This document shows, piece after piece, positions 54,043 through 54,506 of a DNA stretch of 64,000 bases; within the stretch, counting starts at the first letter, position 1, and each line of letters opens with the position of its first letter. The stretch comes from Escherichia coli. GTDB taxonomy: Bacteria; Pseudomonadota; Gammaproteobacteria; Enterobacterales; Enterobacteriaceae. The notes under the pieces are model-generated. The model did not search any database. It was not told where the DNA came from and saw only the letters and a program-made list of their open reading frames with translations. The translations under genes and the position numbers were made by a program. The stretch is from assembly GCF_050320075.1 (NCBI RefSeq), contig NZ_CP190018.1; one strand, 5' to 3'.

Positions 54043-54216
54043 TTAAAACAGTGAAAACAACAGCGCCACCGGGAAACTCATCGGCCATGTTGCCCCCACC
54101 AGAAAGGCGCTTAAGAAACGGATGCGTTTCTTATCGTGAGAAAGAAACCAGGTGATAAGAAATGCGATTGCTGCCATAACCGCATAAAAAACAAGCATGT
54201 GTTGATAGAGAGACAT
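54043..54216 (-). CDS. ortT: Orphan membrane toxin OrtT (YdcX)
   Basis: 57-aa product MSLYQHMLVFYAVMAAIAFLITWFLSHDKKRIRFLSAFLVGATWPMSFPVALLFSLF; the ORF-track start at 54291 is an extension. Confidence 0.85.
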   Translation of the reverse strand: MSLYQHMLVFYAVMAAIAFLITWFLSHDKKRIRFLSAFLVGATWPMSFPVALLFSLF

Positions 54217-54410
54217 GTACGGGCGTCCAGCCAGATGAATAAAACGCGCGCAAATATGCGTCATTTTTTGACGTGCATCAAGTTTTATCACCAGTTTGAG
54301 AAAAAATCATCAAACAGCAACTTGCCCTTATCCATCTTCAGAATGAGTATTATTGCGGATTTTCTTAACCCGTACTATACACATAGGGGCAATGATAAAA
54401 GGTGGCAAAA

Positions 54411-54506
54411 ATGAATGTTTCCAGTAGAACTGTAGTACTGATAAATGTCTTTGCTGCTGTTGGTTTGTTTACTCTTATCTCTATGAGATTTGGCTGGTTT
54501 ATTTGA
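54411..54506 (+). CDS. yncL: Small membrane protein YncL (31 aa)
   Basis: ATG at 54411 to TGA at 54504..54506 gives MNVSSRTVVLINVFAAVGLFTLISMRFGWFI; absent from the ORF track because it is short. Confidence 0.7.
   Translation: MNVSSRTVVLINVFAAVGLFTLISMRFGWFI

Follow-up and report, generated by a model that had tools for sequence, protein, structure and literature searches.

The segment at positions 54043-54506 of the Escherichia coli DNA analyzed here (a 64,000-nucleotide stretch of contig NZ_CP190018.1, assembly GCF_050320075.1; hereafter the window) almost certainly consists of two separate, divergently transcribed genes for known E. coli small proteins, ortT and yncL, and runs exactly from the stop codon of the first to the stop codon of the second. 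We determined the identity, coordinates and true starts of both genes, the purifying selection that acts on them, the conserved promoter islands between them and their conserved pairing; protein function and regulation are taken from the literature, and we infer the promoter hexamers and the sigma-factor assignment. Neither gene is new: RefSeq names both, each has a curated family model, and dedicated experimental papers deal with them. One point alone is mildly new, namely that the back-to-back pair stays together in every checked genus that has yncL.

The ydcY-patD interval holds two divergent small genes

The window is E. coli chromosome, and we compared its stretch 53700-54650 (a 951-bp query) with complete E. 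coli genomes. The stretch was 100% identical to strain CFSAN061763 (NZ_CP042899.1) and 99.2% identical to K-12 strains, and at least 80% of the query was found in 5404 of 5426 complete genomes, a survey of block presence in which annotation was looked at in 20 sampled entries. RefSeq features of NZ_CP042899.1 were transferred onto the window to obtain the gene coordinates (Table 1), which agree in position, strand, length and neighbors with the first-pass annotation, where a 57-aa ortT and a 31-aa yncL had been read on opposite strands between ydcY and patD. That annotation had also spoken of one short intergenic block: the two genes are indeed there, but "intergenic" is the wrong label for two genes and a 194-nt divergent control region.

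Table 1. Features of the ortT-yncL locus, in window coordinates
Feature	Position	Strand	Basis
ydcZ	53274-53723	+	RefSeq feature mapping
ydcY (PF10735, DUF2526)	53724-53957	-	RefSeq feature mapping, Pfam
ortT (ydcX) CDS, 57 aa, ATG start	54043-54216	-	RefSeq "orphan toxin OrtT", WP_000061178.1
Non-coding 25-codon 5' extension of the mechanical ORF, containing the ortT 5' UTR and putative promoter	54217-54291	-	Codon analysis
Putative ortT promoter: -35 TTGATG (54281-54276), 17-nt spacer, -10 CATATT (54258-54253)	54253-54281	-	Proposed from conservation
Putative yncL promoter: -35 TTGCGG (54353-54358), 17-nt spacer, C at -13 (54375), -10 TATACA (54376-54381)	54353-54381	+	Proposed from conservation
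yncL Shine-Dalgarno AGGTGG, 5 nt upstream of ATG	54400-54405	+	Read from sequence
yncL CDS, 31 aa, ATG start	54411-54506	+	RefSeq "stress response membrane protein YncL", WP_001303494.1
13-bp inverted repeat CGTACTGTCAGAG / CTCTGACAGTACG, 9-nt loop	54529-54563		RNAalifold consensus stem
patD	54603-56027	-	RefSeq feature mapping

Both genes are nested inside longer, GTG-started frames of the mechanical ORF list, ortT in an 82-aa ORF (54043-54291, minus strand) and yncL in a 34-aa ORF (54402-54506, plus strand). At the default 60-aa cut-off yncL is absent and ortT appears only as the 82-aa extended ORF, as had been pointed out in the first reading of this DNA. Small ORFs are very common here by chance (51 of at least 20 aa overlap the 2.5 kb around the locus), so the openness of a frame proves nothing on its own; it is the family HMM matches, the excess of third-position changes and the constant ORF lengths described below that lift ortT and yncL above chance.

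Convergent ydcZ and ydcY have no spacer between them (the ydcZ stop ends at 53723 and the ydcY stop codon is 53724-53726), and a GC-rich terminator-like hairpin lies at 53692-53714, within the 3' end of ydcZ. Upstream of ydcZ, mnaT is annotated at 52759-53277 (172 aa), and its stop shares 4 nt (ATGA) with the ydcZ start. The mechanical list again holds an N-terminally extended version of this gene, a 250-aa ORF at 52525-53277, which is the same kind of overcall as that of ortT. The top sigma-70-like match of the region (54000-54027, minus strand; TTGACG, 16 nt, TATCAT, 10/12) falls within the 85-nt spacer between ortT and ydcY and is well conserved in Escherichia. This site is more in line with a promoter dedicated to ydcY than with an ortT-ydcY operon, and a separate ydcY promoter has been reported (PMC4344625).

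OrtT is an orphan member of the GhoT/OrtT family

The OrtT protein matched Pfam PF10753 (Toxin_GhoT_OrtT) with 96.9 bits (cut-off 22.1; E=8.3e-28), with residues 4-57 aligned to profile positions 1-55 of 55. By hydropathy, the 57-aa protein (GRAVY 1.11) has a strong hydrophobic segment at about residues 6-27 and a hydrophobic tail (residues 34-57), and its only charged residues, D28, K29, K30, R31 and R33, form a basic loop, D28-K-K-R-I-R33, between the two. In HMM score, length and the arrangement of two hydrophobic segments around a basic loop, OrtT is a member of the GhoT/OrtT family, and its identification in the first-pass annotation is right. The K-12 protein (YdcX) is identical, as WP_000061178.1 is common to the exact match of the window and the K-12-derived strain C600, and it is encoded at the same locus between ydcY and yncL; the two are one gene found in different E. 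coli strains.

A close point of comparison is GhoT (E. coli yjdO), the toxin of the type V GhoT/GhoS system, of which ortT is a paralogue. The two proteins are 63% identical in an ungapped alignment, are both 57 aa long and both belong to PF10753, and they have in common the basic central loop and a C-terminal TWPMS.PVALLFSLF motif. Their settings differ: in K-12, ghoT lies 27 nt downstream of ghoS on the same strand, whereas the immediate neighbors of ortT are ydcY and yncL, neither of which is a ghoS-type antitoxin gene. With no adjacent ghoS-type gene and a position beside yncL in the patD-ydcY region, OrtT is of the orphan-toxin subtype.

To follow the coding frames, we compared eight Escherichia sequences, namely the window, K-12 and six GTDB species-level representatives (including E. 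albertii and E. whittamii), and a wider set that added Salmonella, Citrobacter, Intestinirhabdus, Buttiauxella, Kosakonia, a Raoultella/K. aerogenes-type lineage and Pluralibacter. Among the eight Escherichia sequences, variable sites in ortT were distributed 13/9/40 over codon positions 1/2/3 (p=1e-6 against a uniform distribution) with a pN/pS of 0.13; across 14 lineages pN/pS was about 0.22, no indels were seen, and the gene was exactly 57 codons from the ATG in all 14. For comparison, the neighboring ydcY gave 3/1/37 and a pN/pS of 0.04 in the Escherichia set. OrtT homologues were 81-93% identical in Salmonella, Citrobacter, Intestinirhabdus, Kosakonia and Buttiauxella. Together with the corresponding values for yncL given below, these data place both frames under purifying selection.

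One position of OrtT deserves separate mention. Residue 38 (codon 54105-54103, minus strand) is phenylalanine, and its change to arginine is the mutation used experimentally to detoxify GhoT and OrtT. Phenylalanine is kept only in Escherichia, Salmonella and Kosakonia; the residue is valine in Citrobacter and Pluralibacter, alanine in Intestinirhabdus, isoleucine in Buttiauxella and leucine in the Raoultella type. It seems from these replacements that a hydrophobic residue is enough at this position and that phenylalanine itself is unneeded.

ortT starts at the annotated ATG

The longer frame raises the question of whether OrtT is really an 82-aa protein that begins at GTG 54291, with the 57-aa annotation a truncation. 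Neither the window nor K-12 has a stop within the 82 codons, and several database entries carry extended OrtT proteins of 73-97 aa. The 25 additional codons, however, do not evolve as coding sequence: in the eight Escherichia sequences their pN/pS was 0.87, and variable sites fell 14/10/9 over the three codon positions, with no third-position bias (p=0.53). One of the eight (L003) has a stop codon in the extension, and the GTG is replaced in three (L003, L006 and L008). In the long ORF, the PF10753 match does not begin before residue 29, and the extension overlaps a conserved promoter-like island, the GTG being located 8 nt upstream of the putative ortT -35 hexamer. The orthologues of constant length in the 14 lineages all count their 57 codons from the ATG, and mutation of this annotated ATG to ACG abolishes toxicity (PMC4344625). 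We conclude that the 25-codon extension is non-coding and that ortT starts at ATG 54216; a genuine 82-aa product is so improbable that we give it practically no weight.

OrtT has been reported to act as a protein (PMC4344625; Islam, Benedik & Wood 2015). In that study, OrtT caused membrane damage, lysis, loss of ATP and increased persistence, and it lowered metabolism under trimethoprim or sulfamethoxazole. Its toxicity was not relieved by YdcY, GhoS or the flanking non-coding regions, and how OrtT is restrained without an antitoxin was stated as an open question. In published experiments, OrtT inserts in the inner membrane and damages it, reduces ATP and proton-motive force, and slows growth once it is induced under stringent-response or heat stress. 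As it has no adjacent antitoxin, it is presumably restrained at the level of transcription.

YncL is a single-span membrane protein of a very small family

YncL matched the NCBIfam equivalog model NF000537 over positions 1-30 of 30 with 72.5 bits (cut-off 35; E=1.8e-20), and precomputed annotations of its orthologues cite PF28073:YncL. Hydropathy indicated a single hydrophobic segment, which spans roughly residues 7-25 and has R6 on one side and R26 on the other. The codon statistics, computed from ungapped ORFs, gave variable sites of 3/1/8 in the eight Escherichia sequences (p=0.039, pN/pS 0.15) and of 14/7/23 across 12 lineages (p=0.012, pN/pS 0.22) with no indels, and the gene was 30-31 codons long in all 12. 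By equivalog score, length, its one hydrophobic span and its coding signature, YncL is a member of the NF000537 family, and its first-pass identification as a small membrane protein holds. The K-12 YncL (Hemm et al. 2008/2010; PMC12542507) is equal in length, lies at the same position and matches at equivalog level, and it differs from the protein of the window in one residue, F13 in place of V13. This position varies among V, F, L and I in Escherichia and its relatives but is hydrophobic throughout.

The start of yncL is ATG 54411. The GTG of the 34-aa mechanical ORF falls inside the AGGTGG of the ribosome-binding site, and three Escherichia species (L004, L007 and L008) have one additional nucleotide after this GTG and before the ATG. 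With this insertion the GTG is no longer in frame, while the ATG frame is unaffected, which proves that the ATG is the start. The same start has been proposed for Salmonella (PMC5437024).

Conservation of the two frames had been named in the first-pass annotation as the way to check its reading, with loss of frame in close relatives counting against it. Both frames were open, of the same length and under purifying selection in the six other Escherichia species-level genomes, and likewise in Salmonella, Citrobacter, Intestinirhabdus, the Raoultella/K. aerogenes type and Pluralibacter; OrtT was additionally kept in Buttiauxella and Kosakonia. Experimental evidence of the kind it had called for is already in the literature, in the form of the OrtT start-codon mutation and the detection of YncL by top-down mass spectrometry (PMC12529367). 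Nothing that we found contradicts the identification of either gene.

YncL has also been detected by tagging and was induced by heat shock and in minimal medium (Hemm 2008/2010 and Hemm 2010, respectively, both as cited in PMC12542507). [quoted passage not shown] Cleavage of YncL in vivo depends on RseP (PMC10470546), and in interactome data the yncL mRNA pairs with the sRNAs RprA and KilS. YncL is a 31-residue single-span membrane protein whose production occurs in stationary phase and in minimal medium and also follows heat shock. The published phenotypes of both OrtT and YncL come largely from plasmid overproduction.

YohP, which is encoded elsewhere in the genome, is likened to YncL by its properties. 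Both are single-span proteins of about 30 aa that are induced in stationary phase or stress, and both depolarize the membrane if produced early; their Salmonella orthologues are sigma-S dependent, and both were initially catalogued as sRNAs.

The YncL family is tiny, with nine representatives at 50% identity among 1.84 billion proteins. One YncL-like representative (P0126, from contigs L094 and L095) was set aside, as its differences (S to F, T to I, A to V) follow a C-to-T pattern and its contigs are nearly devoid of gene calls; it is probably no real homologue but a product of public run assemblies in which E. coli reads were damaged or had been converted by bisulfite. Another, P0122 (82 aa), is a stop-loss variant of E. 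coli YncL in which residues 1-31 are identical and are followed by ...LCSDFARSTYCQ..., the readthrough running over the yncL-patD spacer.

The divergent spacer contains two conserved promoter-like elements

We aligned the sequence that separates the two start codons (179-198 nt) in five and then seven lineages. The spacer has just two conserved islands, which are separated by a variable middle (about 54283-54330). In the island on the ortT side, TTGAT and GCATATT were invariant in five lineages and the ATCA of the -35 element in seven; in the island on the yncL side, CTATA was invariant in seven lineages and the block AACCCGTACTATA was kept in five. In the window, the 194-nt spacer has a conserved promoter-like element for each gene, the two placed back to back. 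The hexamers assigned to them (Table 1) are suggested by conservation and match the consensus weakly, at 8 of 12 positions each, and neither hexamer pair was reported by the consensus promoter scan.

The putative yncL -10 element resembles the sigma-S type. This C-TATACA element agrees with the strong RpoS-holoenzyme site found in the yncL/ydcX spacer by genomic SELEX (PMC5493296) and with the sigma-S requirement for expression of a Salmonella yncL-lacZ fusion (PMC5437024).

The spacer also bears on whether ortT could be a type I toxin, under the control of an antisense or divergent small RNA from the spacer or from opposite its 5' end. OrtT is a small hydrophobic toxin, as are Hok, Ldr and Ibs; a terminator-like hairpin with a T-run lies at 54244-54261 (plus strand), antisense to the ortT leader; and the Salmonella yncL transcript was initially catalogued as the sRNA STnc1110 (PMC5437024). 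An Rfam scan of 53600-54800, however, returned no match at E<=1, STnc1110 included, and no plus-strand promoter-like site was reported inside ortT. The two promoter regions are the only conserved non-coding islands, and ortT shows no unusual conservation at synonymous positions (pS 0.43, compared with 0.29 in ydcY). Three terminator-like matches against 0.9 expected is a weak excess, and the cloned flanks failed to relieve toxicity (PMC4344625). We rejected the 54244-54261 hairpin as the end of an antisense RNA, as it is without a promoter, conservation beyond that of the promoter island, or experimental support. Together, these data largely refute antisense control, which we consider very unlikely, although absence from a sequence search is no proof. 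Presumed restraint at the level of transcription is the reading that we retain for ortT.

The yncL-patD junction

The inverted repeat downstream of yncL lies in the 96-nt convergent spacer between yncL and patD, and RNAalifold showed compensatory changes at several of its pairs in Escherichia. It has no T-run on either strand, which is why it did not register as an intrinsic terminator; it is probably a 3'-end hairpin common to both genes. The patD-yncL pair has been listed among convergent overlapping transcript pairs, or "excludons" (PMC12288877).

In some E. coli strains (for example Z1323PEC0013; L097, 4807-6226), a gene for a CatB-related O-acetyltransferase is found between yncL and patD, so that the gap is about 1.4 kb instead of 96 nt, and the yncL/ortT pair is intact. 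Citrobacter and Intestinirhabdus have other genes at the position of this junction (window 54507-54602), which looks like a recurrent insertion point.

The pair stays together in differing surroundings

A scan anchored on ydcY in GTDB species representatives found ortT and yncL beside ydcY only in Escherichia (eight loci); at 74 other Enterobacteriaceae ydcY loci, most of which also had ydcZ, neither gene was present within 3 kb. The idea that ortT and yncL are Escherichia-specific was nonetheless rejected, because the contexts of OrtT homologues showed the pair in other genera, away from ydcY. Examination of one to two genomes per genus showed the divergent pair, with start codons 179-198 nt apart, in 6-7 genus-level lineages despite differing flanks (Table 2).

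Table 2. Genes flanking the intact divergent pair
Lineage	Beyond yncL	Beyond ortT
Escherichia	patD	ydcY
Salmonella	patD	srfC-srfB
Citrobacter	MFS transporter and AraC regulator	srfC-srfB
Intestinirhabdus	Glycoside hydrolase 25	srfC-srfB
Raoultella/K. aerogenes type	Uncharacterized 122-aa ORF	Abhydrolase
Pluralibacter	Uncharacterized 82-aa ORF, then patD	Abhydrolase

In Salmonella, Citrobacter and Intestinirhabdus, the neighbor of ortT is srfC (Virul_Fac), followed by srfB (L083, 4219-8174; L084, 4185-8174; L090, 4104-8174), whereas in Escherichia ydcY is just 85 nt away. The srf genes beside ortT probably explain why the ydcY-anchored scan met no ortT within 3 kb outside Escherichia.

Every genuine YncL homologue whose context was examined adjoins an OrtT-family gene. 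The reverse does not hold: Buttiauxella has OrtT with a DUF1508 gene at the position of yncL, and Kosakonia (L088 and L089, both 4001-4443) has two tandem same-strand GhoT/OrtT-family genes, 86 nt apart and 84% and 65% identical to OrtT, and no yncL. Because the sample is small and the lineages are close relatives, inherited synteny is the default explanation for the conservation of the pair.

Possible coupling of YncL and OrtT

The alternative to simple inheritance is that yncL and ortT form a functional two-gene module of Enterobacteriaceae whose membrane-active products are coupled. They could be co-regulated membrane stress effectors, or YncL could modulate or neutralize OrtT as a small-protein antitoxin; the coupling could run through shared sigma-S or stress control from the one 180-200-nt region, or through direct interplay of YncL and OrtT in the membrane. 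The pairing of all examined YncL homologues with a divergent OrtT-family gene, the start codons being 179-198 nt apart, speaks for such a module, as do the very small size of the YncL family and the variation of the flanks (ydcY, srfCBA or an abhydrolase beyond ortT; patD, MFS and AraC genes or GH25 beyond yncL), including the acetyltransferase insertion that leaves the pair untouched in E. coli. Both genes respond to heat or stationary-phase stress. Moreover, the constructs of the published antitoxin search contained just the spacer plus some 23 nt of yncL (PMC4344625), so that YncL itself was not specifically co-expressed with OrtT there.

Several observations weigh against a module. OrtT occurs without YncL in Buttiauxella and Kosakonia, and therefore does not need it. 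YncL alone depolarizes the membrane and lowers viability (PMC12542507), which is not antitoxin-like behavior, and a genomic library screened at about 3-fold coverage gave no antitoxin (PMC4344625). All of the lineages are closely related Enterobacteriaceae, each genus being represented by one to two genomes, and synteny over a 460-bp block may equal simple inheritance. On balance, we regard the module, with these variants and routes of coupling taken together, as unlikely, and we keep inherited synteny as the default explanation of the pair.

Significance

The practical value of this locus is that of a positive control: a length-thresholded ORF list hides yncL and mis-starts ortT, and a reading made from sequence alone recovered these two genes of fewer than 60 codons. 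A secondary observation goes beyond the existing annotation, in that the two genes lie next to each other in every case in which yncL was examined, even as their flanks have been repeatedly rearranged. If a coupling between YncL and OrtT were true, it would bear on how an "orphan" toxin is held in check.
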